64,000 bases of DNA, taken from the NCBI GenBank assembly GCA_900544985.1, contig UQXK01000001.1:13459-77458 (forward strand), given 5' to 3'. Under the pieces are notes generated by a model. That model ran no database searches. It was given only the letters and a program-made list of their open reading frames with translations, and was not told the origin of the DNA. Made by a program: the position numbers and the translations under genes. Shown piece by piece: positions 12,943 through 52,111 of the stretch (its first letter is position 1; every line of letters starts with the position of its first letter). The stretch comes from an uncultured Eubacteriales bacterium. Its GTDB lineage: Bacteria; Bacillota; Clostridia; Oscillospirales; CAG-272.

Positions 12943-14862
12943 CTACCATTCGTCGTAATATTTTTTCGCGGACGGCTTTTTCTTCTGAATGGACTTTTTA
13001 GAAGCTATTTGAGGCGTTGCAACCGTTGTGTTTCCGCTCGCGGTTATTGATTTTAGTCTTCTTTCCAACGCGTCATAATTAGGCTGTAAGGCTTTTGCTG
13101 CTGCAAGCGCATAGTCTCGGCAATCAAGAGGCTCGTTTCGTTCATGCCCGGGAATTTTTTCCCATTGCCAAGGATTTCTTCGTCCTGATTTATACACGAG
13201 ATGTTCGGATAAAAGACCGCGAAAATATGGCGCATCGTAATCGTCCCTGCGCGGGAAATGACAATATTTAGGACCGGGCTTTTGTACACGCAAATTGTCC
13301 ATTATTAAAGATTTTCCGGCGTCAACTCCGATTTCAAAAACCCAGCATGTTCCCACCGCCCGACCGTTTATTACAATTTTTTGTTTTTTTGGCGGGGAAG
13401 TATAAGGTACACCATCGCCGCCACGACCTTTGATAGGGAACATCTTTTTACCTTGTCTTTCACGGCAGCGCATACGAACATCTTGCGTAAAGTGACCGCC
13501 TTCGTCGATAAATGTCATTGATATCGGCAATCCGATTCCGTTTTCAAATCGATAAATATGATTGACAACATCATCAAGAGCGTTCCAAGCTTCGTCTGTG
13601 TCAGGTCGTCCCATTATAATGCCTTTTTGAATTCCCCACGTTTCTCCGAAATGACCGTGTCCGACAACTTCATATTCAAATCTGTCGTCCTGTGTATCAA
13701 CACCGCAAGTCAAACAAAGAACGCCGTCTGGCAATTCCGCTTTGTATTCCTCGCGACGAGACATTACGCTATCTTCATCTTCGAGATCTCCGCGGTCCTC
13801 CCAAAGCAATCCGAAACGTGTGTTATAAACGACCTGCATTTTTTTCGAATTTCCGATTGCTTTCAGATAAAGAATGATAGTGGATTTCCATGACGCCCAC
13901 GGCGAGATCCACGACGACAGCCAAAACGAGCGTGTCCCGTGTTGTTCGTAAGCACTGGGATTTTCTGCAACCCATTTAGAGGGCTGTTTTTTCATATCGC
14001 TTTCAGATGATATTCCGCCGCATAAAGGGCAAACATAAAAAAGACTTGTTATTTTATATGTCTTTTCATTTCCGACAATGGTTTCTTCTTTCTCGAAACG
14101 GATGTTATCAAATGTTATCTCGCTGTATTCACCACAATGAGGGCATTGGGTCTTCCATCTCTCCATTGTGCCATTAGCGTATGCATCCTCAATTGCGGAA
14201 GCCCCTCTTATTGTAGGCGTTGATACTTCCACCGATTTTGCATTATAAAAAGTAATCTGCCTTGCCGTTGCAAGTTCCCACGGGTCGCCCTCGTTTCCCG
14301 CACTCGTTGCCCAGCGATCACGCTCATCGCCAAATATGTATCTAATAGGCTTTGATGCCAAAGCATGAGCTTCGGTCGAACCGCACATGGTCAGAATGCC
14401 GCCGGGATATGATTTTTGCAAAATAGTGTTTGCGCTGTCCCTGCTTTTCGGGTCAGCCACTTTTGCTTTTAATGATTTGCAATCGCGTATCATTGGAGCG
14501 ATTCGGAGTTTAGAATATTCCTTCGCGTCTATCGTTGTCGGATGAACGAAAAGTATTGACCCCGGATCTTGGTCTATGATATAGCCGAGCATGTTATTGA
14601 TTGTCTCAGATTTTCCGACCTGTGAGGAAGAAACAAGAACTATATGACGAACTTTTGGGTCATTAAACGCGTCCATCGGTTCTTTGAGATAGGGAGTGCG
14701 ACTGGTGCGCCATGGTCCGACTTCCGCTGAACTTTCAGGGGAAAGCCGACGTTTTTTATCTGCCCACTCGGAAACGGTCAGCTTCTCGGGCGGACGCATG
14801 GCGGCTATCGATTTTGATATGGCGGCATTCAGACGAATCTCATCATTCTTCTTCGTCATCAT
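12943..14862 (-). CDS. Terminase large subunit (lambda GpA family)
   Basis: 639 aa. LTVSEWADKKRRLSPESSAEVGPWRTSRTPYLKEPMDAF..LVSSSQVGKSE is the GpA N-terminal signature including the Walker A-like motif. Confidence 0.9.
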   Translation of the reverse strand: MMTKKNDEIRLNAAISKSIAAMRPPEKLTVSEWADKKRRLSPESSAEVGPWRTSRTPYLKEPMDAFNDPKVRHIVLVSSSQVGKSETINNMLGYIIDQDPGSILFVHPTTIDAKEYSKLRIAPMIRDCKSLKAKVADPKSRDSANTILQKSYPGGILTMCGSTEAHALASKPIRYIFGDERDRWATSAGNEGDPWELATARQITFYNAKSVEVSTPTIRGASAIEDAYANGTMERWKTQCPHCGEYSEITFDNIRFEKEETIVGNEKTYKITSLFYVCPLCGGISSESDMKKQPSKWVAENPSAYEQHGTRSFWLSSWISPWASWKSTIILYLKAIGNSKKMQVVYNTRFGLLWEDRGDLEDEDSVMSRREEYKAELPDGVLCLTCGVDTQDDRFEYEVVGHGHFGETWGIQKGIIMGRPDTDEAWNALDDVVNHIYRFENGIGLPISMTFIDEGGHFTQDVRMRCRERQGKKMFPIKGRGGDGVPYTSPPKKQKIVINGRAVGTCWVFEIGVDAGKSLIMDNLRVQKPGPKYCHFPRRDDYDAPYFRGLLSEHLVYKSGRRNPWQWEKIPGHERNEPLDCRDYALAAAKALQPNYDALERRLKSITASGNTTVATPQIASKKSIQKKKPSAKKYYDEW

Positions 14863-16016: not shown

Positions 16017-16535
16017 TTAAAGTTTGGTGAGCAATTCGGCATTGCTATGTTTTGTCATTCCTTTGCTCATCATGGCAAGGAAATCATCTTTTGAAAAGTC
16101 GGACAGTCGGAATACTTCTTCGGGTTTCATTCCGAGCTGCTTGCTGATCTCGTCTACCGATTTGTTTTCGTCCATCAATCTTTTAACGATGGCTTTCATT
16201 GGTTCGAGAAGATGAGTTCCGCGAGCGCGGTTATGCGTTACAGTTCCGTATATATCTTCCGACTTGTCTTTGTGATCTACGATTACCACGGGAACTTTAC
16301 CGTTTAACATAGAAAGAAGAGGTTCTTCTCCCGATACCGTCCATCTGTGGAATCCATCTATGATCGTATAATCAGGACGTACAACAATTGGTAGAGTCCA
16401 TCCATTTGTTAATATTGATTGAGCAAGCAGTTTGAGATTTTCTTTGCTAACCTTGTTTGGGTTGTAATCATTAGGGTGTAACAGATTTCTATCAACCCAT
16501 TGTAATGATCCTAAGGGCGCGAATATATCAGCCAT
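16017..16535 (-). CDS. ParB-N (sulfiredoxin-fold) domain protein, IbrB-like
   Basis: 172 aa. LLHPNDYNPNKVSKENLKLLAQSILTNGWTLPIVVRPDYTIIDGFHRW is a ParB/Srx N-terminal domain signature. It overlaps the IbrA-like gene by 8 nt. Confidence 0.8.
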   Translation of the reverse strand: MADIFAPLGSLQWVDRNLLHPNDYNPNKVSKENLKLLAQSILTNGWTLPIVVRPDYTIIDGFHRWTVSGEEPLLSMLNGKVPVVIVDHKDKSEDIYGTVTHNRARGTHLLEPMKAIVKRLMDENKSVDEISKQLGMKPEEVFRLSDFSKDDFLAMMSKGMTKHSNAELLTKL

Positions 16536-17682
16536 TTATCTCGCCTCCTTTCTGGAAGCGTTTGCTGTCTTCTACATAATGGCAGAAGACATCTTGAAAA
16601 ACGGCGCGCAATGTTCTTGTCTTGGGATCTCCCGCAAGCAGACCATCATAAAGTTTTCTATAATCACGTGGTCGTGCCATGCCCTCAATTTTTATAAGGG
16701 CTCTTCGATATTGTTCAGCAACATGCTTTTGATGATCCGTATGAAAATACTTACCGGGATTCTTGATGAGCATATCGATAAGCTCGGATTTGTAGTCTCT
16801 ATCGTCGCGCTTTTCCAATGACTGACGGTTGCGTGTGCTACGTCCGAACATTTCGCTATCCCAATATAAAGCGGCAAGGTAGGCGTTTGGCTCTCTCCTT
16901 ATTACGCGTTCCATAAGGTCAGGATAGTATTCGTTCATTCGTACAAGACACGCAGCCGTGTCAGAAGAAAAGAATTGTGACACACGGAGTTGTCCTTTTC
17001 CAATTCCTGCTTGCCACATATAAAGATAAATACTCGGTATCTCTATATGTTCTTCTTTGAGATATAACCATACATCGCTTGTCTTCCAGTCATAGATTGG
17101 ATAGATCTGTCTGTTCCCCGTGATGCCTTTGGCGCCCATATTTAAGGCCGCCATATATTGAAGACGCTGTATGGATTCAGCCGCTCTCACGCCTGTCATC
17201 ATTATCCCGCCTTTTGTAACTCTCGGCAGGAACGCTTGATAGTTATCTGCACGAGGTTTTAGAAGCGGGTGTGATCTCACAGCGAATGGCGGCGGTTGTC
17301 TTACCCAAACGTCGCTTTTGGTACTATCCCAACAGATAAATGATTCATCTGACGTCAGCTGGTTAAAGCAGTTGAAGTGTCGGACTTCAAGACAGTACCA
17401 ATCAAATTTTGTGCCGGCAAGAAGAAATTTCTTACGCCATGTTTTCACAGTTTCTTCGATGCAGGGAAATATAGCCTCTTCATCAATGAATAATACTGTG
17501 AGCTGAGAAGCGTTTATTTCGCCAGAGCACAGTAGGGAATAGACAAGCTGCGCAATGCACAAACTGTCTTTTCCTCCGGAGAATGACATATATACAGGCA
17601 AGCCGTTTGCAAATACATTTTTGATTCGCTTTTTTGCCGCTGTAACGACATCCATATCAGATTTAACGCGCTTTACAGCCAT
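16528..17682 (-). CDS. PAPS-reductase-family PP-loop protein, IbrA-like (long C-terminal extension)
   Basis: 384 aa with the PP-loop motif YMSFSGGKDSLCIAQLV. The architecture, with a ~150-aa helical C-terminal extension, resembles IbrA-type proteins. Confidence 0.85.
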   Translation of the reverse strand: MAVKRVKSDMDVVTAAKKRIKNVFANGLPVYMSFSGGKDSLCIAQLVYSLLCSGEINASQLTVLFIDEEAIFPCIEETVKTWRKKFLLAGTKFDWYCLEVRHFNCFNQLTSDESFICWDSTKSDVWVRQPPPFAVRSHPLLKPRADNYQAFLPRVTKGGIMMTGVRAAESIQRLQYMAALNMGAKGITGNRQIYPIYDWKTSDVWLYLKEEHIEIPSIYLYMWQAGIGKGQLRVSQFFSSDTAACLVRMNEYYPDLMERVIRREPNAYLAALYWDSEMFGRSTRNRQSLEKRDDRDYKSELIDMLIKNPGKYFHTDHQKHVAEQYRRALIKIEGMARPRDYRKLYDGLLAGDPKTRTLRAVFQDVFCHYVEDSKRFQKGGEING

Positions 17683-18320
17683 ATTTTTTCACCGCATTTC
17701 GGACAGACAACAAAACTTCTGCCGGAATTTTCCTCTCTGCGGTTGTTGTCAACATTACTATCGGCAATATACTGCGATGCTTGCGGTGTGTACTGTTGTT
17801 CGTAAATAGCTTGCTGTGTATGATTGTTAGGCGCTTCGTATTTCATGCTTGCGTTTCTAATATTTTCAGCTTCTTCCTCATCTATCTTGCCATATTCCGA
17901 AAGTACTTCGGTCATATCGCTGTTATCCATGAGAAGAGATTTAAGAAAATCGTCGTCATAACCAGGTATATCCAAGTCTTCGCTTAATTCTGCTAAAATT
18001 TCATCAAATGCTGATATATTGTCAACGCCAAGATTAAAGATTCGATTGTCAGCGATCATAAGTTTTTTCTTATCATTTTCGCTTAAATCTGTTATCTTGT
18101 TGCAAAACGCCTCGGTCCATCCCAAAGCCATCATTGCCATATACATACCATTACCGGTAAGGATGACATTGTTTTCATCTATGGTTAAAGGTTTTACCTG
18201 TTTGAATTTTTGTAAAGAACGCTTATATTCTTTGATTTGCGCTTCGGGGTGTGTGCGAACGTTCTTTTCTGATGGTTTTAGGTCTGCAAGTTTGAATTTT
18301 TCAATTTTCAATTTCGTCAC
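17673..18320 (-). CDS. ParB-N nuclease-like domain protein with C-terminal zinc ribbon
   Basis: 215 aa. FKLADLKPSEKNVRTHPEAQIKEYKRSLQKFKQVKPLTIDENNVILTGNGMYMA is a ParB-N signature. It has an acidic linker and ends in VVCPKCGEKIWL. Confidence 0.75.
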   Translation of the reverse strand: MTKLKIEKFKLADLKPSEKNVRTHPEAQIKEYKRSLQKFKQVKPLTIDENNVILTGNGMYMAMMALGWTEAFCNKITDLSENDKKKLMIADNRIFNLGVDNISAFDEILAELSEDLDIPGYDDDFLKSLLMDNSDMTEVLSEYGKIDEEEAENIRNASMKYEAPNNHTQQAIYEQQYTPQASQYIADSNVDNNRREENSGRSFVVCPKCGEKIWL

Positions 18321-19102
18321 CTCCTTTCTTCAAGGAAGCGGCGAGCGCTTTCTATTTTTATCGCGGCATTCTCAACGATAGACGGGTCAATATTATAGAC
18401 TTCGCTCCATCCGTTTTCTATACTTCCACACCATTGCCTTGCAGGCCACGGGTGCGTGCCGCATAAATATCCGTTCTTCCAATCATAAATAGGGGGAACA
18501 GGAATATTGTTGTAGTGAATATATGCAAGGATATGCTCGTGTTTCCAATCAGCAAGAGGGCTATATCGTAGAACACCCTTGCCGTCTGTATACTCATTAC
18601 CTTTCCCGGTGTAATTTCCGTCTGCGTGTCTACGACCAAGAATTAAAACATCAAGATTTTGTTTCTTATAGTAAATGCGCTGTGCGGTATGCTGTACTAT
18701 TGAAAACCACCTGGCAGCTTTGACGCTGTTTTTGGGAAATAGCATATCGAGATGACGGGAGAGCCAGTCAAGCCCAAGCTCAATGCGAACAATCTCGCAT
18801 TCTTTCGGCTTATTTAGTTCAATCCACGTCATAAACGCGGGATATTCGAAATCGCATACCCCGATCATACTTTGATGAATCCCTGCAATTTCGCAAAGTT
18901 TTCCAAGGACTATGCTGTCCTTGCCACCGCTCCAAGCGTACGCGGCGTTTTTGTCTTTAACAAAATTGGTTATTTGCGAAATTGTTTCAACAGCCAACTC
19001 ATCTATTTCGGATTTGCTGACAGTTTCCTCTATATGTTTGATTGCTTCGAGCCAGTCATCGTTTTTGATAGACTGTTTTCTTCCAAGCGGTTTTATTGGC
19101 AT
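18317..19102 (-). CDS. PAPS-reductase-family PP-loop protein (second paralog)
   Basis: 261 aa with the PP-loop AYAWSGGKDSIVLGKLCE. Its ATG lies inside the last codons of the transporter gene (10-nt overlap), with AAGGAGG 7 nt upstream. Confidence 0.8.
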   Translation of the reverse strand: MPIKPLGRKQSIKNDDWLEAIKHIEETVSKSEIDELAVETISQITNFVKDKNAAYAWSGGKDSIVLGKLCEIAGIHQSMIGVCDFEYPAFMTWIELNKPKECEIVRIELGLDWLSRHLDMLFPKNSVKAARWFSIVQHTAQRIYYKKQNLDVLILGRRHADGNYTGKGNEYTDGKGVLRYSPLADWKHEHILAYIHYNNIPVPPIYDWKNGYLCGTHPWPARQWCGSIENGWSEVYNIDPSIVENAAIKIESARRFLEERR

Positions 19103-20469
19103 TTCATCGCCTCCTTTTTAGAGACAATGAGTGCTACAATCCCGCTGATAAATACAGTTGCGAGACTTCCAATCGTTTTGTAAAGGGCAATTCCTAAAAT
19201 GTTGCCATATGCAAAAATCGGTAATCCGATAATTGCAGATGCCAAAATTCCGTAAAAAACACCGTTTGCCGATATTCTTTTCCCGAGAAGCGTCATAACG
19301 GTAGGGAGTAATGTTGTTGCTCTGATTGTGCAATAAAACAGAAACAGATGCGTAACCGTAAGACCTGGAATATTCGCTATGCCGATGCCGAACAATAACA
19401 AAATTAGCATACTTCCTTTTGCGACTTTGATGTTTCCTCCAAAATCACTTGTAAGAGAAGCTACTGCGCAAAGATTACTGTCAACAGTAGAAAGAAGTCC
19501 CGAAATAACCATGAACAGAAAGGGAAGCATCACCCATTTTGGAAACAGATTTGTAATCAATTCAAAATTAACCATTCCCGTGTCTGTTGCAACATATCCG
19601 GAACCTGCGGCAATGTAGCCGAGAATTCCCATAGAGAGCGGGGCGATAGCAAACATCAACGCGCCGAGCACAAATGCTTTTCCTATTTTATTTTTTTTGA
19701 TAGAGAAAGCACGTTGCCAAAAACATTGATCTCCAAAAGGACCTGCAATCAATCCAATGGCTGTTGGAATACCGAATGACAACAGAACGGAAATGCCGTT
19801 CCCGTCAAAAAGACTCTTAAATTCTCCACTAATACCGCCCAATCCGTTTATAAGATTTGAAACACCGCCATCTACCGATAATGCCCACGGTACGAATACC
19901 GCGCAGGCGGCAAGCATGAGAATCATTTGAAGCGCGTCCGTTATAACAGAGGCTTTTATCCCCGAAAATTGAGAGTAGGAAAAGGCAATGACCGCGAGAA
20001 TTATTGTCATTACCCAAAATGGAATGCCTGTAATTGATGAAAGAATCTTACCGCCAGCGAGCAGTTGTACGCCCGTCGATAAGATCGAGAGTAGGGAAAG
20101 CTGACCGAGATATGCGTATCTTACTTTTTCGGATTTGTATTGAGTTGCCATAAAGTTCGAAAGTGTAATGCCCTCGGGCATTCGCTCCCTTATCCTTTTG
20201 GCAAAAGGCACGAATAGGATTAGACACGCCACGTTCGGTATAAGGAACCAAAACAGTCCCGGAATACCGTTTGAATATGCCTTTTCCGCCGATGTGAATA
20301 GTGCCGGTGCCCAAATCCAAGTAGCCGCAATGCTCATAGCCGCCTGCCACATTCCAAGTTTTCTGTTAGCTACGTGAAAGTTATCGGCGTCTTTACTTTT
20401 TCGCGAAAATAAAAAAGTTGCGCCGAGCATTATCGCCGTATATACGACGAGTACAATGATACCATACAT
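19093..20469 (-). CDS. Sodium:solute symporter (SSF) family transporter
   Basis: 458 aa with a polytopic membrane profile throughout. The N-terminus LGATFLFSRKSKDADNFHVANRKLGMWQAAMSIAATWIWAPALF is typical of SSF transporters. AAAGGAGGAG lies 6 nt before the ATG. Confidence 0.85.
   Translation of the reverse strand: MYGIIVLVVYTAIMLGATFLFSRKSKDADNFHVANRKLGMWQAAMSIAATWIWAPALFTSAEKAYSNGIPGLFWFLIPNVACLILFVPFAKRIRERMPEGITLSNFMATQYKSEKVRYAYLGQLSLLSILSTGVQLLAGGKILSSITGIPFWVMTIILAVIAFSYSQFSGIKASVITDALQMILMLAACAVFVPWALSVDGGVSNLINGLGGISGEFKSLFDGNGISVLLSFGIPTAIGLIAGPFGDQCFWQRAFSIKKNKIGKAFVLGALMFAIAPLSMGILGYIAAGSGYVATDTGMVNFELITNLFPKWVMLPFLFMVISGLLSTVDSNLCAVASLTSDFGGNIKVAKGSMLILLLFGIGIANIPGLTVTHLFLFYCTIRATTLLPTVMTLLGKRISANGVFYGILASAIIGLPIFAYGNILGIALYKTIGSLATVFISGIVALIVSKKEAMKCQ
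20313..20333. repeat. 21-nt exact direct repeat, copy inside the transporter CDS
   Basis: AAATCCAAGTAGCCGCAATGC on the plus strand. The same 21-mer occurs at 20525-20545. Confidence 0.95.
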
Positions 20470-20673: not shown

Positions 20674-21084
20674 TTATTTTTTACCTTTTTCTGAACGATT
20701 CAAAAAACGATAGCACGCTTTTTTTACACTGTCATCGGTATTTCCGCCTCCGATAGACAACGCAATTTGATTCCATGTCATTAAATCTATAAATCTGTAT
20801 GACAATATCAATCGCATTTGATAGTCATCCACTGAGCTTATGTAAGCGTCAATATTTTTGCGTTCTGATATGTATTTTATCTGCTCGTTCTTGATTCTAT
20901 CTTTGAGTTCTACAATTAAAGGAACAAGTTCTTCAATTATATTCTTTGACGAAGACCCGCGAGGCATGCCACTGATATTCATTCCACCTGGTTCTAATTT
21001 TGATTCAAGATCCGCCAGCCTTAAACTATCTCTTTCTATCAGCTTGTTTAAATAATACAGTTTACTGAGTTCGCGTAATGTCAT
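20674..21084 (-). CDS. Phage late-gene transcriptional regulator (sigma-70 region-4-like; DUF1492/ArpU/RinA-type)
   Basis: MTLRELSKLYYLNKLIERD...DYQMRLILSYRFIDLMTWNQIALSIGGGNTDDSVKKACYRFL is a pattern typical of small Firmicutes phage activators. Likely start is the ATG at 21084. Confidence 0.6.
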   Translation of the reverse strand: MTLRELSKLYYLNKLIERDSLRLADLESKLEPGGMNISGMPRGSSSKNIIEELVPLIVELKDRIKNEQIKYISERKNIDAYISSVDDYQMRLILSYRFIDLMTWNQIALSIGGGNTDDSVKKACYRFLNRSEKGKK

Positions 21085-21493
21085 TATTTTCCTCCTCATC
21101 TATATAGTTTCGACCAAATATGCAATGGAAGTCTGCAATGGTCAAGTTGTATTTTTTCATAGCTATTTTTTGTGTCTCTTTTTGCAGCTCTCTGCATATT
21201 TCAGCATTTTTATGTACGGCATTATCTCCGAAAATATGGCAACTGAAATGGTGAAGATATACCGTCAGACCATATTTTTCGGATTTCTGCCTGTATGGAC
21301 CGAAGAATATATGGTGCTTGTCCAAAGGATCTGTTCCTGTTCCGTATCTGCCGCAGATATAACATCTGCGGCTGTCTTTTTGAATAATACTTTTAGCCAT
21401 TAAAATCTCCAAAATTTTATTATTTATTTGTATTTTGTGTGGATAGATTTTTTTTGCACTCTCAAAATCAACTCGATTAAATCTCTTTTTCAT
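21062..21493 (-). CDS. Cys/His-rich phage protein (HNH-like/zinc-binding), function unknown
   Basis: Contains RRCYICGRYGTGTDPLDKHHIFFGPYRQKSEKYGLTVYLHHFSCHIFGDNAVHKN. The start was trimmed to the ATG at 21493 because the upstream part overlaps a better small gene. Confidence 0.45.
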   Translation of the reverse strand: MKKRFNRVDFESAKKIYPHKIQINNKILEILMAKSIIQKDSRRCYICGRYGTGTDPLDKHHIFFGPYRQKSEKYGLTVYLHHFSCHIFGDNAVHKNAEICRELQKETQKIAMKKYNLTIADFHCIFGRNYIDEEENNDITRTQ

Positions 21494-21661: not shown

Positions 21662-22729
21662 TCAACCTCCTATCTTCCAATCGTCTTTTCGTACCGAAAA
21701 CGCATCTCCGCACTGTATAATGTCGGGGGAATTGCTATTCGCAATTTTTATCGCAAACTTGTCGATTTCGTAAGCAAAATACTTAACATTTGTAAATCCC
21801 ATTTTGTCAAGGCAATAACGACCTGTGCCGATACCATCGTACATGGAAAGACATAGTATATCTTCGTCCCTCGGCACATTCTTAAATGCACCGTTCAGAA
21901 TATGTATGATAACCTCAGCAGTCCAGCCGTTGCCAAGTCCCTTATATCTTTGCATGTTGCTGACCGATGCCGTATATCCATCTGGCAATGTTTGCAGACG
22001 TTCACATTCAACTGGGGTCAGCTTTCTGATAATATAACATCCGTCGGGCAGATTGATAGAATATACACGCCCTTTCACCTCGATCAATCCGTTTTTGACC
22101 TCATAAACCCTTTTAATGCTTTCTTTGTCTTTCCCCGATCCTGTAAACGGCGTTGGATGTTCGTCTGTCTTTATAGCAACACCACTTGCGCCATATGTCG
22201 AATCATAACAACAAATATTCTGAACACTTGTGAAACTGTATTGCGCTTTCAATGTTTGCGATTTTCCATCGGATGTTGTGTTGATCGGAACATATACAAG
22301 TGTTCTGACATGCTTCGATAAGTTATGTTCTAATGTACTTCCTTTTTGTTCAGTAGCAGTCAAACAGTAAGACTTTGATTGACAGCATACACCGCTTTCA
22401 AGAATATCCGCAAGAAGTATTCCACGATCATGCGGTTGATCGACTTTCCAATTAAAGGCATAGAATCGTTGTCGGTTTTGAGCGGATACAAGCGCGGAAT
22501 TTATGTACATCAAATCAGCGCCAAGTTCTTTTGATATTTCATCTTTTATCGGTTGGGCAGCGCTCTTGTTGTTTTCATACAAGAAGAAGTCAGGTTTGAA
22601 TTTTTCTTTTGCAATTACATAATTGCGAAAAAGCTCCCAACCTATACCGCTCGGCTCCGTTTCACGGTTGTTCTTTTGTGCTATACTCCATTTTGTACAT
22701 GGCGAGCCGCCAATCAAAAGTTTTATCAT
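21662..22729 (-). CDS. DNA (cytosine-5) methyltransferase, circularly permuted motif order (IV-X then I-III)
   Basis: Starts MIKLLIGGSPCTKWS (motif IV). FFLYENNKSA is motif VI, INSALVSAQNRQRFY is motif VIII, LQTLPDGYT is in the TRD/IX region, and GLGNGWTAEVIIHIL is motif X. Only after these come ILCLSMYDGIGTGRYCL (motif I), FAYEIDKFAIKIA (motif II) and QCGDA (motif III), and then the stop. ATGA overlap with the upstream ASCH gene at 22726-22729. Confidence 0.8.
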   Translation of the reverse strand: MIKLLIGGSPCTKWSIAQKNNRETEPSGIGWELFRNYVIAKEKFKPDFFLYENNKSAAQPIKDEISKELGADLMYINSALVSAQNRQRFYAFNWKVDQPHDRGILLADILESGVCCQSKSYCLTATEQKGSTLEHNLSKHVRTLVYVPINTTSDGKSQTLKAQYSFTSVQNICCYDSTYGASGVAIKTDEHPTPFTGSGKDKESIKRVYEVKNGLIEVKGRVYSINLPDGCYIIRKLTPVECERLQTLPDGYTASVSNMQRYKGLGNGWTAEVIIHILNGAFKNVPRDEDILCLSMYDGIGTGRYCLDKMGFTNVKYFAYEIDKFAIKIANSNSPDIIQCGDAFSVRKDDWKIGG

Positions 22730-23385
22730 CTCAACTCCTCTACATAACACCAGCTTTGAGGCGGACGGGTAAGTGTTTTTCTTTTGTTGGCTCCGCACCT
22801 TGTATATCCATTTATTGGATCATCATCAAAACAAAGATAACGGCAGTTTTTGCATGTTTTGTCCGTTGCATAGCCCGTTCCTTTGCAGAATGTTGCAAAA
22901 TCCGAAAGTTCTCGCGGTTTATCATAGATTACAATGTCAGATATGTGCCAGCCGTAAATTGTTTTACCTTTTGCATAAATGTTAATATCTTCTCGTTCGA
23001 GCTGAGTTTCCAAAAGGCTGTCATCATCTATATCTGTTCCGTCACAGTAGTCGTATGGATATTCGATAATATTGTCACACACAAACTCGCCGATTACTTT
23101 GCCCTCTGCGAGATAAGCATTGTACCGATATGCAGGCAAGTGGGGGTTTACATCAACGACATCTTTTCCGCTTCGCCAGTTACCAGTAACACCAAACTCT
23201 TTTCGCCCATATCCGCTATTGACATAAAGGTGTAGAGCGTTTTTGCGATTATCATGTGTGCAGTAAATATAACACTTAAACGGCGTCTCTATCTTCGGTC
23301 TTGTTTTTCTGACTTCAATTGTCTTTTTGACCGAAGCTATCAGTTCGCACCATTTCGGTTGTATGCTTGTCAGTACAGAGTTCAT
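22726..23385 (-). CDS. ASCH (PUA-like) domain protein
   Basis: MNSVLTSIQPKWCELIASVKKTIEVRKTRPK and the C-terminal LTRPPQSWCYV are characteristic of phage ASCH proteins. ATGA overlap at 23382-23385. Confidence 0.75.
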   Translation of the reverse strand: MNSVLTSIQPKWCELIASVKKTIEVRKTRPKIETPFKCYIYCTHDNRKNALHLYVNSGYGRKEFGVTGNWRSGKDVVDVNPHLPAYRYNAYLAEGKVIGEFVCDNIIEYPYDYCDGTDIDDDSLLETQLEREDINIYAKGKTIYGWHISDIVIYDKPRELSDFATFCKGTGYATDKTCKNCRYLCFDDDPINGYTRCGANKRKTLTRPPQSWCYVEELR

Positions 23386-23630
23386 TTCAAATACCCACAT
23401 TTCTTCATTTCTTGGCATCTTATCTGCACATCATTCCAGTCTTTTAAGGCGAGATACGCAGATTTGAATTGCTCCATACCGCCTCTACCGCAGACAGGGC
23501 AATACGCTTCAAAATAAGTGTTAGGCTTTCCTCCGCATACTTTAAGTTGCGGCATTCCGTAATACACGCTGTCGCCGCTGTTCGGCTCATGGTCGCAACA
23601 CACACAAGGTAGAATTTTATCAACTTTCAT
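23382..23630 (-). CDS. Lar-like restriction-alleviation family protein (putative)
   Basis: 82 aa with the pattern CVCCDHEP....YCPVCGRGG....AYLALKDWNDV (two Cys pairs followed by WN). ATGA overlap with the YopX gene. Confidence 0.5.
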   Translation of the reverse strand: MKVDKILPCVCCDHEPNSGDSVYYGMPQLKVCGGKPNTYFEAYCPVCGRGGMEQFKSAYLALKDWNDVQIRCQEMKKCGYLK

Positions 23631-26543: not shown

Positions 26544-27431
26544 TTATGTTTCTTGTCCTTTATCTGCCAAATCAAGGTTTGCCGCAGCTTGTTCGAAATA
26601 ACTCTTTTTAAGTTCAATTCCAATGTGTCTGCGATTCATTTTAAGTGCCTGATACCCAGTCGATCCGATACCGTCAAATGGATCAAGTACGATTTCGCCC
26701 TCTCGGCTCCACAATTCAATACATCGTTCAATCACCGGTAACTGCAATGGGCAGATATGGCGTTCATCTTTTTCGCTTCGGGCACTTTTTCTCTGTAATG
26801 TTGCACTTTGATTTATGTCCCACCATACTGGCGTTGCATATTCATCCCACACAGGGGAGGCTATCTGTTGCCAATGTGATACAGGGTATTCTTCGGGTTC
26901 ATGACAAAGCGGCTCCGGATTTGTCCCGGGTTTTCTAAAAGTACAGATAAAATCCGGTATGCCTTGTCTGCTCATAGCAGAGTCTTTTTTTAGTTGTTTC
27001 CACAAAAGACCGAGAGCTTTTGTGCGCTGCATTGCTGTTACGGGATTTTTCCAAATACATACCTCAGAATGATAGATGAATCCGAGCGACTGCATCCAGC
27101 GAATTACATCGCCGCGGAAGTCTCTTATTCCTATTACGCCATCTTTTTCTTTTGATGTAGGCAAGTTCATACAATGGATCGAGACAAGACGTCCCGGCAT
27201 CATGACACGGAACCATTCAGTACCGAGAAATTTATAGTGTTCCGCGAATTCGTCATATGTTCTGCTATTTCCCATATCCCTATCGCTATTTGAATATGTA
27301 TAAAGTGATGCGAAAGGAATAGAAGTAATGCAGTAGTGAATACTGTTAGATGGAATTCCCGCAAGTACCTCACAAGAATCGCCATTATATAACACATAAT
27401 TATTTCCTCTGACTTGATCTAAAACTTTCAT
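26544..27431 (-). CDS. DNA methyltransferase, beta-class (N6-adenine or N4-cytosine)
   Basis: 295 aa. The catalytic-type motif CITSIPFASLY is near the N-terminus and the AdoMet motif VLDPFDGIGSTGYQALKMNRRHIGIEL is near the C-terminus. ATGA overlap with the SNF2 gene. Confidence 0.85.
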   Translation of the reverse strand: MKVLDQVRGNNYVLYNGDSCEVLAGIPSNSIHYCITSIPFASLYTYSNSDRDMGNSRTYDEFAEHYKFLGTEWFRVMMPGRLVSIHCMNLPTSKEKDGVIGIRDFRGDVIRWMQSLGFIYHSEVCIWKNPVTAMQRTKALGLLWKQLKKDSAMSRQGIPDFICTFRKPGTNPEPLCHEPEEYPVSHWQQIASPVWDEYATPVWWDINQSATLQRKSARSEKDERHICPLQLPVIERCIELWSREGEIVLDPFDGIGSTGYQALKMNRRHIGIELKKSYFEQAAANLDLADKGQET

Positions 27432-28853: not shown

Positions 28854-30368
28854 TTATTTACCCAAGACTTCACCCAATTTCTTTTTAAGAAGCGCATCGA
28901 AATCATCTTCGGTTTCTTCGATGACTTCCTCAATTTCGTCGGTCTCGGTGTCTATTGCCTCATCCCCGGACTTTTTGTAAAGCGGGTGTGTCCCGTTTAA
29001 CATATGTTTTTCCTCATCGGACATTTCATATCCGAGAACACAAAGCCCTTGATACAGGCTTTTAAGTTTGGGATTTTCACGGTAATTGCCGCTCCAATCG
29101 ACACAGTTGTTATTGAAGCTATCGCACCATTGCGCATATACGTTCATCAGAAGAGCTTTTTCCGGGTGTTTATCTATGAATTCCGCAACCTTAGCCCAAT
29201 CATCATTATTTTTGATATCAAACAGTTCCTTGAACCTATCTATGCTTGCTTGTACGGTGGAGTATCCAGAAAACAGTCCCTGGCTCATCATCGATACAAT
29301 CTCGCGCAAACACATCCAGTCAGAAATTTTCTCGATATTTTTCTTACTGTCTCTATGTGAGTAATTTTTAATGAAGTTAAATCTTAACCAGAATGCACTT
29401 TTGGAAAGTTCGGAAAGTTGCTCTCTTCTTGTGCGTTCTTCATCGCGCCTTTTCTGCTCCTCGCGCTCTGATCCTTCGGTTTCTTCGGTCATTACTTTAT
29501 CGGCGCGAATGTATGGTATATCGTTGTAGCCCCATGCAAAGTAGAGCTTATCGTGGCTTTTTGCATATTCTGCAATCTTTTCATTGCTTGGCTCACCGTC
29601 AAGATAACCGAGAGATTTATACTGCTCATTCCAGATATCGTTGTATGAGATTTCCTCCATACCAAATGTTTCAAATATCTTTTGCCATTCTAATTTTCTC
29701 TTTTTCCCGTTTTGCGCGTTGAGTGCTTTTTGAAACTCTCGGTTGAAGTTGTTGGTTCCAATTTCGCAGAGGACTTTGTTTCTTGTATCAATATCCTCAA
29801 TTTGAGAGAGCATATCATAATCCATTAGCGAGGCCTGTCGTCCGGATACATTTTTCAGTGTTTCTCCGTCCAATTCTGCTATTTTCAATCGGCGGCGAAT
29901 AGTGGATTTTGAAAATCCTGTTTTTTCGGCAACAGCATCAATACTATCGCCAAAATCCATCATCATTTGGAATCCCTGTGCTTGCTCATAAATTGTTAGG
30001 TCTTCTCGTTGCATATTTTCCAAAAGCATGGTTTGAACCTGTTCGGCAGGAGTCATCTTGGCAATGACGCAGGGAAGCGTTTTTAGTCCTGCCGCCTTTG
30101 CTGCTTCAAGACGTCTATTTCCTATTACAACAAGATATCCAATTTCAGCTTGCTGTTTCGGATCGTCGCATCCCACCCCAGTCGTTTGAAACCAAAAAGG
30201 AACGACTGTTAGATTTTGCAAAACACCTTTTGCCTTTATGCTTTCCGTGAGTTCTGTCAAGTCTCCTAAACTCTTACGCGGATTGTCGTGATGATGGTGT
30301 AGCAGACTAACGGGTATATTGACTATTTCTCCCGTGACTTCTTCTGTGTATACAAACTTATTTTCCAT
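28854..30368 (-). CDS. ParB-N domain protein with long C-terminal extension
   Basis: 504 aa. IPVSLLHHHHDNPRKSLGDLTELTESIKAKGVLQNLTVVP...VVIGNRRLEAAKAAGLKTLPCVI is a ParB/Spo0J N-terminal signature, followed by HTH-like FSKSTIRRRLKIAEL. Confidence 0.8.
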   Translation of the reverse strand: MENKFVYTEEVTGEIVNIPVSLLHHHHDNPRKSLGDLTELTESIKAKGVLQNLTVVPFWFQTTGVGCDDPKQQAEIGYLVVIGNRRLEAAKAAGLKTLPCVIAKMTPAEQVQTMLLENMQREDLTIYEQAQGFQMMMDFGDSIDAVAEKTGFSKSTIRRRLKIAELDGETLKNVSGRQASLMDYDMLSQIEDIDTRNKVLCEIGTNNFNREFQKALNAQNGKKRKLEWQKIFETFGMEEISYNDIWNEQYKSLGYLDGEPSNEKIAEYAKSHDKLYFAWGYNDIPYIRADKVMTEETEGSEREEQKRRDEERTRREQLSELSKSAFWLRFNFIKNYSHRDSKKNIEKISDWMCLREIVSMMSQGLFSGYSTVQASIDRFKELFDIKNNDDWAKVAEFIDKHPEKALLMNVYAQWCDSFNNNCVDWSGNYRENPKLKSLYQGLCVLGYEMSDEEKHMLNGTHPLYKKSGDEAIDTETDEIEEVIEETEDDFDALLKKKLGEVLGK

Positions 30369-40328: not shown

Positions 40329-40481
40329 TTATTTATCTGATAATAGGCTTTTCACTAAAACTATTATCATATCTTGTGCTTGGGGCGGAATTCTCATAAA
40401 AAGCTCAGTGGCTTCGATTAACCTTTTGTTTTTTTGTTCATCTGTCGTTTTGTTCGGATATGCAGTTTTTGCTTCTTTCAT
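40329..40481 (-). CDS. Small protein (50 aa) homologous to the C-terminal tail of the two XRE repressors
   Basis: My own translation gives MKEAKTAYPNKTTDEQKNKRLIEATELFMRIPPQAQDMIIVLVKSLLSDK. AAAGGAA lies 8 nt upstream and TATAAT further upstream on the minus strand. It aligns with KEFVELFSELTEEQQKMLVLQMKGLLAK and LEFINLFAQLTMEQQSLVISQIKGILS. Confidence 0.4.
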   Translation of the reverse strand: MKEAKTAYPNKTTDEQKNKRLIEATELFMRIPPQAQDMIIVLVKSLLSDK

Positions 40482-40603
40482 ATTGCCTTGTTCCTTTCGT
40501 CAGAATTTCTAATTTCGCTACAACCATTATAATACAATTAAATAGAACTACTTCAATTTTGTTATTTTATAACAAATATATGAATAAGCAAGGAGGCGAG
40601 CTC

Positions 40604-42271
40604 ATGGCACGCAAACGAATAAACACACCAGAAGCGACAGGTGTCATATACGCTCGTTTTTCTTCGCACAATCAGCGTGAGGAGAGCATAGAACAACAAG
40701 TTGCCGAATGCAATACTTTTGCTTTGGCTTCCGGAATTAAAATAGTGGGTGTTTATTCTGATAGTGCAAAGACTGGAAGAACCGACCGTAGACCTCAATT
40801 TCAGAAGTTGCAACGCGAGGCACAGAAGGGTGAGTTCGATTATATTATTGCATACAAATCGAACCGTATAGCGCGAAATATCCTCAATGCGCTTATGTTT
40901 GAAAACGAGATGGAAAAACTCGGAATCAAGGTCGTATATGCAAAGGAAGAGTTCGGCAACAATGCCGCAGGACGCTTTGCACTACGCACTATGATGAATG
41001 TAAACCAATTCTTCTCGGAAAATATGGCAGAAGATATCAAGCGCAACCAAGCCGACAATGCCTTGAATTGCCGTGCAAATGGTCCCGCTCCATATGGATA
41101 TAAAACAGGAGCAGATGGTAAGTTTGTCATAGATGAAATGAGAGCACCTATTGTGCAGGAAATCTTTAATCGCACAGCGAATGCCGAGAAGTTTGTAGAA
41201 ATCAGCGAAGATCTAAATAGACGTGGTATCAAGACCAAGAACGGCAACGAATGGGGGAAAAGCAGTTTCTTCACGATTCTCCATAACGAACGGTACACAG
41301 GCGTTTATATATTTAACGATGTGCGAATTGAAGGCGGAATGCCTGTAATCATAGAAAGGAGCCTATTTGATAGGGTGCAAAAAATTATGAAAACAAAGAA
41401 AAATCCACAGGGACGCAAAAGAGCCGACGACGGCATCTACCTATTGACAGGCAAGCTGTTCTGCGGAAAGTGCAAATCCCATATGATAGGAATGTCAGGG
41501 ACGAGCAAGAATGGCGATAGCCACTATTACTATATCTGCAACGAAAAACGCACAAACGGAACATGCGACAAAAAAGCTGTTCGCCGAAACTTTTTGGAGA
41601 ATGAGATAGCAAAGGCTATCCGTCGTTATATTCTCCAACCGAATGTGATGGAGTGGATCGTGCAGCAGGTTCTTAGCTTCCAAAAGGGAGATGTTAGGCA
41701 AGTTGAGATAGCGAATATGCAAGAGAGACACAAAGAGGTAAAAAAGGCGATAGCGAATGTCATGATCGCCATCGACCAAGGCATCATCACCGCCTCCACG
41801 AAAGAGCACTTGCAAGATCTTGAATCCGAACGCGCGCAGCTCGACGCTCGTATATTGGTTGCACAGTCAGAGGCAGGGAAGGCAGTTACAAGAGAATCAT
41901 TGCTTGCCTACTTAGAGCATTTCAGAGCCGCAAACGTGGAGGATAAGGAATGCCAAAAGGAATTGTTTGACACCTTCGTAAAAGCTGTGTATCTTTATGA
42001 CGACCACATCACGCTTATCTTCGATATTAACGATGGAACTACTGAGGATGTTGAAATCAGCATGGATGAAGTAGAACAGAGTTTATGCGAAAATGTTCGC
42101 TTAAACTCTGTTGTGGGTCACCAAATTGAACAAGACGAACACGTTTTTATGTGTTTGTCTTATTTTTTTTGTCTTTTGCAAGGACATTCCAAACTATTGA
42201 TAACTACTTTTAGTTATGATATAATACTATCGGAAGTTCTAAGTGTTTATATTGATAATGAGTATTTATGA
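40604..42271 (+). CDS. Large serine recombinase (integrase)
   Basis: ATG at 40604 after AAGGAGG. The N-terminal resolvase domain is GVIYARFSSHNQREESIEQQ...RTDRRPQFQKLQ. It has a recombinase domain, a zinc ribbon CGKCKSHM...YYICNEKRTNGTCDKK and a coiled coil. The last ~40 aa look non-native (see findings). Confidence 0.9.
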   Translation: MARKRINTPEATGVIYARFSSHNQREESIEQQVAECNTFALASGIKIVGVYSDSAKTGRTDRRPQFQKLQREAQKGEFDYIIAYKSNRIARNILNALMFENEMEKLGIKVVYAKEEFGNNAAGRFALRTMMNVNQFFSENMAEDIKRNQADNALNCRANGPAPYGYKTGADGKFVIDEMRAPIVQEIFNRTANAEKFVEISEDLNRRGIKTKNGNEWGKSSFFTILHNERYTGVYIFNDVRIEGGMPVIIERSLFDRVQKIMKTKKNPQGRKRADDGIYLLTGKLFCGKCKSHMIGMSGTSKNGDSHYYYICNEKRTNGTCDKKAVRRNFLENEIAKAIRRYILQPNVMEWIVQQVLSFQKGDVRQVEIANMQERHKEVKKAIANVMIAIDQGIITASTKEHLQDLESERAQLDARILVAQSEAGKAVTRESLLAYLEHFRAANVEDKECQKELFDTFVKAVYLYDDHITLIFDINDGTTEDVEISMDEVEQSLCENVRLNSVVGHQIEQDEHVFMCLSYFFCLLQGHSKLLITTFSYDIILSEVLSVYIDNEYL

Positions 42272-45733: not shown

Positions 45734-45914
45734 AAAAAGCACGGCATTGCCGTGCTTTTTTGTATATGCATTAGATGTTGGGGCTATCCGCCCCAAACCC
45801 GGACACAAGGGACTTTTCGAGAAAAGTTTCTTGGAACTTCAAAAGCTTCGCCAAAGTAAATTGGTGTGCTCGGTGTGAAGTTCTTTGGCTTACCTTTCTT
45901 TCAAGAAAGGTAAG
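45734..45914 (-). repeat. REP/MITE-like composite element, copy A (inverted orientation), includes terminator hairpin
   Basis: Contains the terminator AAAAAAGCACGGCATTGCCGTGCTTTTTT (45734-45762). Also has the reverse complement of the core GAAGCTTTTGA.GTTCCAAG.AACTTTTCTCGAAAAGTCCCTTGTGTCCGGGTTTGGGGCGG, and the end hairpin CTTACCTTTCTT-tca-AAGAAAGGTAAG (45888-45914). Confidence 0.85.
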
Positions 45915-48900: not shown

Positions 48901-49478
48901 TCTTCAAGATCTTTGTAATCCCATACTTCGATCTTCTGGATCTCGTGAGATGTACGGAAGCCGTCGAAGAAGTTGATGAACGGAACGCGTCCCTTTATTG
49001 TGGAAAGGTGAGCGACAGCGCCGAGATCCATAACTTCCTGAGGGTTGGATTCGCAGAGCATAGCAAATCCTGTCTGACGGCAGGCATATACGTCGGAATG
49101 ATCTCCGAAAATATTGAGCGCGTGAGAAGCTACGCAGCGCGCGGAAACGTGAATTACGCAGGGAAGAAGTTCGCCTGCAATTTTATACATATTGGGGATC
49201 ATAAGGAGAAGTCCCTGAGATGCCGTATATGTCGTTGTGAGAGCGCCGGCTGCAAGAGAACCGTGAACTGTTCCCGCAGCGCCTGCTTCGGACTGCATCT
49301 CCATTACTTTAACATTCTCGCCGAATATGTTTTTGAGTCCTGTGGCAGACCAGGAGTCTGTGAGTTCCGCCATTACACTTGACGGAGTGATGGGGTAGAT
49401 AGCAGCTACTTCCGTAAACGCATATGAGACATGCGCGGCGGCGGTGTTGCCATCCATGGAAATTTTATTTCTTGCCAT
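45915..49478 (-). CDS. nifJ: Pyruvate:ferredoxin (flavodoxin) oxidoreductase
   Basis: ~1187 aa from the ATG at 49478 (MARNKISMDGNTAAAHVSYAFTEVAAIYPITPSS). It has two 4Fe-4S ferredoxin motifs (CIQCNQCSYVCPHA and CMGCGLCVKVCP) and a TPP-binding GDGWAYDIGFGGLDHV. Confidence 0.95.
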   Translation of the reverse strand: MARNKISMDGNTAAAHVSYAFTEVAAIYPITPSSVMAELTDSWSATGLKNIFGENVKVMEMQSEAGAAGTVHGSLAAGALTTTYTASQGLLLMIPNMYKIAGELLPCVIHVSARCVASHALNIFGDHSDVYACRQTGFAMLCESNPQEVMDLGAVAHLSTIKGRVPFINFFDGFRTSHEIQKIEVWDYKDLEEMVDKDAIAAFRARALNPNHPVLRGSAENGDIFFQHREACNEYYDALPEIVEEYMDKVNAKIGTNYKLFNYYGAPDAERVIVAMGSICDVAEEVIDYMMAKGEKVGLVKVRLYRPFRADKLIEAIPATAKKIAVLDRTKEPGSLGEPLYLDVVTALAENGVNGVKVVGGRYGLGSKDTTPASVFAVYENLSKDEPKNGFTIGIVDDVTHRSLEETAAPDTAPEGTISCKFWGLGGDGTVGANKNSIKIIGDHTDKYIQAYFQYDSKKTGGVTISHLRFGDKPIKSSYYITKADFVACHNPSYMLKGYKIVEDVKPGGTFLLNCQWKPEELSENLPASVKKYIADNNINFYIVDAIDKAREIGMGKRTNTILQSGFFALAKIMPIAEAVDYMKYMAKKSYLKKGEAVVEMNYKAIDAGVDALVKVDVPADWKNAVAEVKNDAATGKRDDLVKFVNDIVLPVAKMQGDSLPVSTFAGSRADGTMPQGASAYEKRGVAVDVPVWHPENCIQCNQCSYVCPHATIRPYAMNADEAANAPAATKFTAKMTGKGCEDYKFSIAISPLDCMGCGLCVKVCPTKPEKRALEMVPQATQQDQQAVFDYAVENVSKKDLPFAETTVKGSQFNQPLLQFSGSCAGCAETSYARLITQLFGERMYISNATGCSSIWGGSAPATPYTVNKDSGKGPAWANSLFEDNAEHGLGIYLGQKTIREKLIGYVKALRETVTDDAKAAVIDNYLNTVEDGKANTPAANALVDMLSACDCQNELKDKILAEKDYLAKKSVWIFGGDGWAYDIGFGGLDHVLASGADVNIMVFDTEVYSNTGGQASKASQIGQVAQFAAAGKATKKKDLANIAMSYGYIYVAQVAMGADMNQTIKAMAEAEAYHGPSLIIGYAPCEMHGVKGGMGNCQSEMKRAVEAGYWQMFRFNPELKAEGKNPLTIDSKPPVASYIDFIKSETRYSRLEQAFPERAQVLFTEAEEQAKAKYERLTKLAKMYED

Positions 49479-49613
49479 GTGTAAGAACCTCCGTAAAAAA
49501 TTTTGTGTTATATTATAATAAATAACATTAACCATAGATTATAATATCACTTAAAAGGTGAAAAGTAAATACAATAAGCGCAAAAAAACGTATTAAAAAT
49601 AAAAAAGCGAAGA

Positions 49614-52032: not shown

Positions 52033-52111
52033 TATAATAAAAAAGTCTTAACGCACTTTTATAGTGCAGTATAAAAACAACGAAGTTAAATTTTTAATTT
52101 GGAGGAAACCG

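Follow-up and report, generated by a model that had tools for sequence, protein, structure and literature searches.

Cytosine-5 (C5) DNA methyltransferases (MTases) form a textbook class of DNA methyltransferases in which the conserved motifs follow one another in a fixed order. The locus described herein raises the question of whether such an enzyme may be broken within its catalytic domain, joined at its former termini, and maintained as a functional protein. It lies in a 64,000-nucleotide (nt) stretch of contig UQXK01000001.1 from an uncultured Eubacteriales bacterium (assembly GCA_900544985.1, positions 13,459 to 77,458), referred to below as the window, and consists of one minus-strand prophage gene (21662..22729), the product of which we call the window MTase. 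This protein does not follow the canonical linear order from motif I to motif X. We confirmed that the window MTase, in which motifs IV-X precede motifs I-III, is real, constrained, and representative of a large gut-phage family. We are confident, short of certainty, that the gene, which belongs to a myovirus-like prophage of a gut clostridial genome, encodes a genuine and intact orphan DNA C5-MTase that is probably active and whose chain is circularly permuted.

The coding sequence is complete. The open reading frame (ORF) extends from an ATG at 22729 to a stop codon at 21662-21664 and encodes 355 amino acids (aa), as indicated by the ORF translation, the PF00145 match described below, and a second, independent gene call on a gut metagenome scaffold of 58 kb, which gave an identical 355-aa gene with the same boundaries. 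The ribosome-binding region (22730..22749, minus strand), read directly from the sequence, contains GAGGAG 5 nt 5' of the start codon. The latter shares an ATGA with the stop codon of the preceding ORF (22726-23418), which suggests translational coupling between the two. This Shine-Dalgarno sequence, the ATGA overlap, and the identical N-terminus MIKLLIGGSPC in relatives support the start codon. A longer GTG-initiated frame of 378 aa was rejected because it runs into the preceding gene and relatives begin at MIKLLIGGSPC. An earlier sequence-only reading of this stretch gave the correct coordinates, but did not state the strand, which is minus. The motif strings that it quoted were all found in the order given, far above chance: MIKLLIGGSPCTKWS (aa 1-15), YENN (aa 51-54), QNRQR (aa 84-88), TLPDGYT (aa 247-253), GNGWT (aa 266-270), LSMYDGIGTGR (aa 294-304), AYEID (aa 319-323), CGDA (aa 340-343), and the C-terminal ...DDWKIGG before the stop codon (aa 349-355).

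Pfam PF00145 (C-5 cytosine DNA methylase; EC 2.1.1.37) recognized the protein in two stretches with 83.5 bits, well over its cutoff of 22 (E=2.5e-23), and aa 2-279 corresponded to positions 62-320 of the 324-position profile. A phmmer search of the Protein Data Bank (PDB) placed three segments on DNMT3A: aa 289-347 aligned with residues 7-66 (motifs I-III), aa 3-94 with residues 77-173 (motifs IV-VIII), and aa 240-278 with residues 237-277 (motifs IX-X). The order of these segments on DNMT3A therefore indicates a circular permutation, which reads IV-VI-VIII-target-recognition domain (TRD)-IX-X-linker-I-II-III. The non-canonical topology proposed in the sequence-only reading is thus borne out by the Pfam stretches, the DNMT3A mapping, and the de-permuted alignment given below. 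Since the C-terminal segment aligned with DNMT3A residues 7-66 and the de-permuted protein matched canonical phage MTases over its full length, the homology of this segment to motifs I-III also held.

Residue conservation was assessed in an alignment of the window MTase with 72 permuted relatives of 65-90% identity. Motif IV (LIGGSPCTKWS, aa 5-15; 22685..22717, minus strand, as are all features of the gene) carries the catalytic Cys11 and, from the alignment with motif IV of DNMT3A and a predicted strand at residues 2-8, places strand beta4 at the new N-terminus. G7, G8, S9, P10, C11, T12, W14, and S15 were invariant across the 73 family members. Motif VI (FFLYENNK, aa 48-55; 22565..22588) includes the catalytic Glu52 in an ENN variant of ENV, with Y51, E52, N53, and N54 invariant. 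Motif VIII (VSAQNRQRFY, aa 81-90; 22460..22489) contains Arg86 and Arg88; Q84, R86, and R88 were invariant, and the string INSALVSAQNRQR of this region is identical in the canonical enzyme of phage H40/1. The variable region or TRD (aa ~100-234; 22028..22432) was delimited by low conservation, length variation in the family, and low confidence in the structure prediction. Motifs IX-X (aa 235-279, RKLTPVECERLQTLPDGYT...YKGLGNGWTAEVIIHILN; 21893..22027) align with residues 237-277 of DNMT3A and 257-314 of M.HhaI. They are followed by a new linker, GAFKNVPRDED (aa 280-290; 21860..21892), which connects the former C-terminus, in the motif X helix, with the former N-terminus and is not found in canonical relatives. 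The relocated S-adenosylmethionine (SAM)-binding half (21698..21859), identified from the alignment with DNMT3A 7-66, conservation, and the predicted fold, comprises motif I (ILCLSMYDGIGTGR, aa 291-304), motif II (VKYFAYEID, aa 315-323), and motif III (DIIQCGDAF, aa 336-344). The chain ends in a new tail, SVRKDDWKIGG (aa 345-355; 21662..21697 with the stop codon), which corresponds to the canonical loop from motif III to motif IV. All motifs had been described as intact from the sequence, and we agree. The Pro-Cys, the Glu, the Q-x-R-x-R, and SAM-binding motifs I, II, III, and X are all present, the last four represented by YDGIGTG (297-303), E321, D342, and GNGW (266-269).

The break point was located by comparison with canonical-order enzymes of annotated phages (Pseudoalteromonas H40/1, Roseobacter CRP-9, Vibrio phages, and Croceibacter P2559Y). 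When aa 285-355 (the last 71 residues) were placed first, the de-permuted window MTase aligned end to end with the H40/1 and CRP-9 enzymes at 45-46% identity. The junction between motifs III and IV in canonical relatives reads ...GDVTKWREWDIDWSSIDLLIGGSPC / ...QLGDVTKWREWDIDWSSIDLLIGGSPCQ..., whereas the window MTase ends in ...GDAFSVRKDDWKIGG / ...QCGDAFSVRKDDWKIGG before its stop codon and starts with MIKLLIGGSPC / MIKLLIGGSPCT.... Its C-terminal tail aligns with the canonical ...TKWREWDIDWSS, which directly precedes IDLLIGGSPC. Therefore, the new termini are located in the loop between motif III and beta4 (motif IV), with a few residues lost at most, which is the position proposed from the sequence alone. 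At the other junction, canonical enzymes end in ...HIFKGI / ...GNGWTVDVIAHIFKGI before the stop codon and start with MNVLSLFDG, and the window MTase joins both by ~10 extra residues. Its N-terminus lies 4 residues ahead of motif IV, and motifs IV-VIII precede the TRD. The window MTase is thus a permutant of the III/IV type, with an N-terminus between motifs III and IV and the old termini linked by ~10 aa.

The same termini and linker recur throughout the permuted proteins. The X-to-I spacing was 28 or 30 aa in 212 of 215, with a common linker of ...P.DE..(I/V)x(V/L)LSMYDG; motif IV began at residue 7 in 150 of 189; and the stretch after motif I was mostly 58-60 residues long. We searched 5.8 billion proteins and obtained at least 8000 matches. 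The best 120 of these (E 1e-220 to 1e-145) were all permuted, with motif IV at approximately aa 7, motif X far downstream, and motif I ~30 residues past motif X and ~60 aa from the C-terminus. They were 346-580 aa in length because the segment between motifs VIII and IX is hypervariable. An exhaustive search of 1.84 billion representatives of 50%-identity clusters yielded 8606 relatives at E<=1e-3, of which 1200 remained at E<=1e-30; among the best 150 representatives, ~100 were permuted (order-consistent fragments counted) and ~35 canonical. In a set of bacterial genomes with one genome per species, 288 stretches encode a relative. The best 80 of these loci were inspected; 56 were clearly permuted, 12 were canonical, and the remainder were truncated or frameshifted. 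The hosts of the best loci were overwhelmingly gut Clostridia (Oscillospiraceae, Acutalibacteraceae, Lachnospiraceae, Christensenellaceae, and Ruminococcus). Relatives were also found in the cultured isolates Butyricicoccus pullicaecorum DSM 23266, Criibacterium bergeronii, Robinsoniella peoriensis, and Acutalibacter intestini, the first of which is among the isolates of permuted loci. An assembly artefact or a one-off rearrangement was considered and rejected, since independent contigs and isolates also carry the gene. The permuted topology is inherited and characterizes a large protein family carried by phages and prophages of gut Clostridia; permutation is therefore a family-wide trait that extends beyond the single gene treated in the sequence-only reading.

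The window MTase is among the shortest members of this family. Close matches reach 580 aa and cluster representatives 853 aa; repeated TRD-like modules were seen in long relatives, and some of the longest carry inteins. Multispecific phage C5-MTases of the SPR, phi3T, and rho11 type are distinguished by several tandem TRDs in the variable region. Among annotated phages, Phage nd4 has a permuted member that is labelled 'hypothetical protein'. This protein (L002:6001-7677) and those of loci L008, L061, and L063 have a C-terminal extension of ~100-150 aa past motif III, ending in ...DIIALEYAIGALRR, to which no Pfam family matched. In loci L033, L062, and L079, the permuted gene is split into two ORFs by a frameshift or stop codon, and these copies are probably pseudogenes or sequencing errors.

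Across the 73 sequences, G266-N267/W269, D298-G299-I300, and E321 were also invariant, and D342 was conserved in at least 90%. By the share of alignment columns that were at least 90% conserved, the relocated I-III segment (76%) equalled or exceeded motifs IV-VIII (68%) and motifs IX-X (73%), and the linker (36%), C-terminal tail (18%), and TRD (17%) were far more variable. A segment I-III as conserved as the catalytic core is the pattern expected of a working SAM-binding half and not of a relic.

A structure prediction with AlphaFold2, based on the same alignment, gave a predicted TM-score (pTM) of 0.73 and confident Rossmann elements. The first half of the chain was modelled as beta4 (2-8), a helix (28-44), beta5 (48-54), a helix, beta6, and beta7 (88-92), and the second half as the motif X helix (271-282), beta1 (291-296), alphaA, beta2 (315-320), alphaB, and beta3 (338-341). 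The predicted local confidence (pLDDT) of beta1-alphaA-beta2-alphaB-beta3 at residues 291-341 was mostly 86-95. Structure prediction had been proposed as a check on the permutation, and the model points to a complete Rossmann core with the two motif halves packed in one domain. Every top match of this model in a Foldseek search of the PDB was a C5-MTase (DNMT3A/B/C, M.HhaI, and ntDRM/DRM2) at a probability of 1.00. A Foldseek search of BFVD also returned C5-MTases only, with low TM-scores, and no model of the same topology.

We propose the following mechanism. The chain opens with the catalytic half, which comprises beta4 and the Pro-Cys nucleophile (IV), the Glu (VI), and the Arg-x-Arg (VIII), and continues through the variable TRD, motifs IX-X, and the ~10-residue linker into the SAM-binding half I-III, ending in the loop that normally precedes motif IV. 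Since the N- and C-termini of canonical C5-MTases are adjacent, the permuted chain should adopt the same Rossmann-type fold and build the same active site. The target cytosine would be flipped out, Cys11 would attack its C6, and the methyl group of SAM would be transferred to C5, with the target sequence presumably set by the variable domain. Such methylation may shield phage and lysogen DNA from restriction. The conserved catalytic and SAM-binding residues and the strong constraint on the relocated segment support activity indirectly, and the window MTase is, as the sequence-only reading proposed, probably enzymatically active. The 5-methylcytosine product and the anti-restriction role are those expected from family membership, and both the chemistry and the biological role are probably ordinary.

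Several observations speak against this interpretation. The NCBIfam model TIGR00675 scored 65.8 bits against a cutoff of 100.65, i.e., below threshold; a score below the cutoff is expected because this model describes the canonical order. The Foldseek TM-scores were only ~0.4, which we attribute to the permuted chain order under an order-dependent aligner and to the poorly modelled TRD. The pLDDT was below 50 at residues 102-182 of the TRD, and the model is a poor basis for judging DNA recognition. Moreover, PCT.WS (not PCQ) and ENN (not ENV) are unusual motif variants; however, canonical-order relatives have them too.

Three other explanations were weighed against a single-chain DNA MTase. 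The best of these, which we nevertheless regard as unlikely, is that the protein is active only as a domain-swapped oligomer in which I-III of one chain completes IV-X of another. DNMT3A/B/C, the closest solved relatives by sequence, are generally known to work as oligomers, and the permutation removes the covalent link between beta3 and beta4, making a swap topologically possible. Split C5-MTase fragments also complement each other in trans (PMC5944983). However, the AlphaFold2 monomer packs both halves in one domain, the ~10-residue linker after the motif X helix fits the adjacency of the termini in canonical structures, and engineered single-chain permutants of a similar type are active (PMC5944983). 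A change of chemistry on the C5-MTase fold, with RNA as the substrate as for DNMT2 or with a non-methyl group transferred as the first step of hypermodification, appears very unlikely. The family-wide PCT.WS and ENN variants would be compatible with it, as would the presence in the prophage of two PAPS-reductase-family proteins, ParB_N proteins, and an N6/N4 MTase. However, the occurrence of the same variants in canonical-order relatives unlinks them from the permutation, a hypervariable TRD between motifs VIII and IX characterizes sequence-specific DNA MTases, the nearest structures are those of DNA MTases in complex with DNA, and no TET/JBP-type oxygenase or glycosyltransferase match was found among the adjacent genes scanned. 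We give almost no credence to a decayed remnant, in which a 5'-truncated first MTase gene was fused to a 5' fragment of a second and the product is non-functional or carries I-III as a neutral relic: tandem MTase genes and tandem fusions occur in the same clade and frameshifted or truncated permuted copies exist in some genomes (L033, L062, and L079), but the same termini and linker length are found in more than 200 proteins from many species, I-III is conserved at 76% of columns against 68% for the core while the linker and tail drift, the SAM-binding and catalytic residues are all kept, and no other motif I-III is encoded nearby to function in trans.

The single-chain permuted MTase may be compared with several known systems. 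By sequence, it belongs to the same clade as the canonical 'DNMT3-like' C5-MTases of phages and prophages (H40/1 gp22, CRP-9 gp12, and relatives from gut Clostridia). It shares with them INSALVSAQNRQR, LTPxECERLQTxPDxYT, RYKxLGNGWT, and SLFDG/SMYDG, as well as the same place in phage early-gene modules, and the gut canonical relatives even have PCTxWSIAQ and ENN. They differ in order, which is I-II-III-IV...X in the canonical enzymes and IV...X-linker-I-II-III in the window MTase.

Plant DRM (domains rearranged methyltransferase) enzymes (PDB 4ONJ and 7L4C) carry motifs VI-X followed by I-V, with the break between V and VI. They resemble the window MTase in having an X-to-I junction within one chain, and HMMER aligned aa 234-325 collinearly with residues ~174-262 of ntDRM/DRM2 with no net indel. 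However, DRM is eukaryotic, has N-terminal UBA domains, and shows weak similarity to the window MTase (E ~1e-3 to 1e-6). Motifs IV and VI are both N-terminal in the window MTase, and the X-to-I junction is the only feature of the order in common. The two permutations are most likely of independent origin.

The existence of permuted C5-MTases with other break points, mentioned in the sequence-only reading, is well documented. A scan of REBASE for enzymes with motif X ahead of motif I added 22 proteins to M.BssHII, M.Alw26I, M2.Eco31I, M.Esp3I, and M2.BsaI (PMC5944983). In all natural cases of this 2018 survey, including the M.BssHII group, the break is in the variable region only, and the authors argued that evolution favours routes keeping both domains intact (PMC5944983). 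These zeta or 'Type H' enzymes share with the window MTase the order of motif X then motif I in one chain, and both fit permutation by duplication (PMC5944983). They differ in that the N-terminus of Type H enzymes is in the variable region, with IX-X before I-VIII, whereas the break in the window MTase is inside the large catalytic domain, between III and IV; the window MTase is not of the Type H order, which a rare relative (P0251, described below) has. Furthermore, Type H enzymes are found in Type IIS restriction-modification systems, while the window MTase is an orphan phage enzyme.

The closest counterparts in topology are from the laboratory. M.HaeIII permutants starting between III and IV were active, according to the account of Peisajovich, Rockah & Tawfik 2006 given in PMC5944983, and the 'Type B/C' permutants cpM.MpeI and cpM.SssI were constructed by Slaska-Kiss et al. 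2018 (PMC5944983). These active enzymes have the same or a neighbouring topology, with the N-terminus just before IV and I-III at the C-terminus, and were made through tandem-fusion intermediates that resemble the relative P0133 described below (PMC5944983). They are artificial and derive from unrelated parent enzymes, whereas the window MTase family occurs in nature, where it is abundant and has diversified. According to the 2018 authors, REBASE contained no natural counterpart of III/IV permutants (PMC5944983), and a 2025 topology classification of prokaryotic MTases has only two m5C classes, C (canonical) and F (Eco31I-like). We found no description of a natural III/IV-permuted C5-MTase in the full-text literature searched, a scope that did not include subscription journals or REBASE itself and leaves room for prior notice.

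Regarding the origin of this topology, the likeliest route would be an in-frame fusion of two tandem MTase genes, followed by the loss of motifs I-III from the first unit and of IV-X from the second. Components of this route exist in the clade. Croceibacter phage P2559Y has two tandem canonical genes of the clade located 1 nt apart, and P0133 (962 aa) and P0211 (618 aa) each combine two full motif sets in one polypeptide (I-X-linker-I-X). P0133 (L088:2043-4931) is a true single ORF in the middle of a 62-kb contig, with PCTYWSIAQ and ENN in both units. A tandem-duplication origin had been suggested from the sequence alone, together with a search of relatives for the intermediate. These fused forms were found; they show that the route was available and make such an origin plausible. 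PCTxWS(IAQ) and ENN were present in 23 of 42 canonical-order units examined in the same search, and these variants therefore predate the permutation. TRD-like modules (AEPV...DKAYC...) are repeated within the very long variable region of the second P0133 unit and suggest that it is multispecific.

One further relative, P0251 (L089:560-1609), is a complete 349-aa gene with the order TRD-IX-X-I-II-III-IV-VI-VIII, i.e., an M.BssHII-like break in the variable region, and was the only example seen. This order indicates that different trimmings of fusions seem to have happened in the clade. Phage H40/1 was considered as an intermediate with I-X followed by I-III and was rejected. The tblastn match ran past the MTase stop codon into the next in-frame ORF; its translation gave a plain canonical MTase and then an unrelated ORF, and the read-through was a weak alignment extension.

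The number of permutation events was approached with neighbour-joining trees on core residues. A midpoint-rooted version gave a meaningless monophyly test, and a re-rooted version suggested mixed clades. A sub-type with 'PCF.AG' and an insertion of 350-400 aa, which occurs in both topologies, was considered as a sign of several permutation events and rejected because Pfam identified the inserted segment as an intein (Hint/LAGLIDADG) that interrupts the catalytic Pro-Cys. Its distribution is thus a product of homing rather than of descent, and the tree had been contaminated with intein sequence. The intein (~350-400 aa) is located exactly at the motif IV Pro-Cys in the permuted P0142, P0175, P0200, and P0203 and in the canonical P0183, P0212, P0223, P0247, P0255, and P0263; it was detected by Pfam in P0142 and P0183 and deduced from motif spacing in the other carriers. 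In the permuted hosts, the N-extein is only ~10 residues long (MKRILIGGSP), and the catalytic Cys would act as nucleophile at position +1.

Two results limit this account of the origin. In the cleaned tree, the permuted set was fully monophyletic in only 16 of 60 bootstraps, and IV-X of the first unit and I-III of the second unit of P0133 are not closer to the window MTase. P0133 serves to illustrate the route; it is not itself the ancestral protein. The median size of the largest pure permuted clade was 71 of 84 over the 60 bootstraps. Since the tree does not separate one origin from several, we relied instead on the uniform linker and termini. On these grounds, the evidence for one ancestral permutation event followed by radiation is good, though not conclusive. 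We lean, by a modest degree, towards the broader view that the IV-X/I-III proteins are a large natural class, undescribed in the literature searched, which arose essentially once via a fusion of tandem phage MTase genes and the trimming of both ends.

The present results indicate that a break inside the catalytic domain, between III and IV, has been tolerated and successful in nature, in hundreds of 50%-identity clusters and in prophages across many gut Clostridia. The family, along with the tandem-fusion proteins of the clade, offers a natural example of permutation by duplication for a III/IV topology that was previously laboratory-only. If this view is correct, one clade keeps the whole series, from tandem genes through fused double enzymes to III/IV permutants and, rarely, a permutant broken in the variable region; the published rule that natural C5-MTases are permuted only in the variable region would be overturned, and the directed-evolution pathway of the Tawfik laboratory would have a natural counterpart. 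The sub-threshold TIGR00675 score and the 'hypothetical protein' label in at least one phage record suggest that methylome and restriction-modification annotations of gut phages may miss permuted enzymes. The family provides ready scaffolds for the engineering of split or permuted MTases, and its topology, abundance, and fusion 'intermediates' are of interest to specialists in the evolution of methyltransferases and protein topology.

The window MTase gene belongs to a myovirus-like prophage that occupies the minus strand from ~1 to 42.3 kb of the window. Genes for the tape measure, sheath, major head protein, protease, and portal are followed by the large terminase (12943-14862), a ParB_N/PAPS-reductase/symporter cluster (16017-20469), and a late transcriptional regulator (20674-21099), after which the MTase gene is located. 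Past the MTase are YopX, an N6/N4 MTase (26544-27431), helicases, a ParB-like protein, and a Sak4-like annealing protein, and a large serine recombinase (40460-42271) also belongs to the prophage. The MTase gene is thus in the early/replication module, with phrog_3136, phrog_7566, the late transcriptional regulator, and YopX as neighbours. No nuclease match was found beside it, a restriction endonuclease not being strictly excluded for phrog_3136 and phrog_7566, which are of unknown function. The window MTase is an orphan phage enzyme, and its place in the early module is the classic setting for anti-restriction self-methylation. No separate ORF that supplies motif I was found, consistent with the sequence-only reading, as the ORF at 22726-23418 and the downstream ORFs had no MTase signal.

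The ORF directly upstream of the MTase gene (22726-23418, minus strand) encodes 230 aa, matches only phrog_3136, and has a Cys-rich C-terminal part. Pfam gave no match to it; by eye, it is an unconfirmed ASCH/PUA-like candidate. The second DNA MTase (26544-27431, minus strand) is unrelated to the first (PF01555 N6_N4_Mtase, E=4.8e-22), and the prophage therefore carries at least two DNA methyltransferases. The ParB-like protein (504 aa; 28854-30368, minus strand) has a weak match to an MTase-family PHROG.

The cluster that follows the large terminase, all on the minus strand, consists of a ParB_N protein (16017-16535), a PAPS-reductase-family protein (16528-17682; phrog_2302), and a second PAPS-reductase-like protein (18317-19102), with a 215-aa ORF between the two PAPS-reductase genes, and a 458-aa sodium:solute symporter (19093-20469; PF00474, E=1.9e-23; phrog_20720 over its full length, E=1.5e-182). 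This 458-aa ORF had been considered as a terminase and was rejected, as it encodes the symporter and the large terminase is at 12943-14862. A membrane transporter within a prophage is unusual; the same cluster was found on an independent scaffold (L007).

Host genes for PFOR (45915-49535), YfhO (52064-55315), and NFACT/RqcH (55626-57359) are located past the prophage. A 1165-aa ORF on the plus strand (45885-49382), antisense to PFOR and with no Pfam match, is almost certainly a shadow ORF. Past these host genes is a second phage-like region, with a large terminase (59569-60894) and a P22-like portal (60897-62537) on the plus strand.

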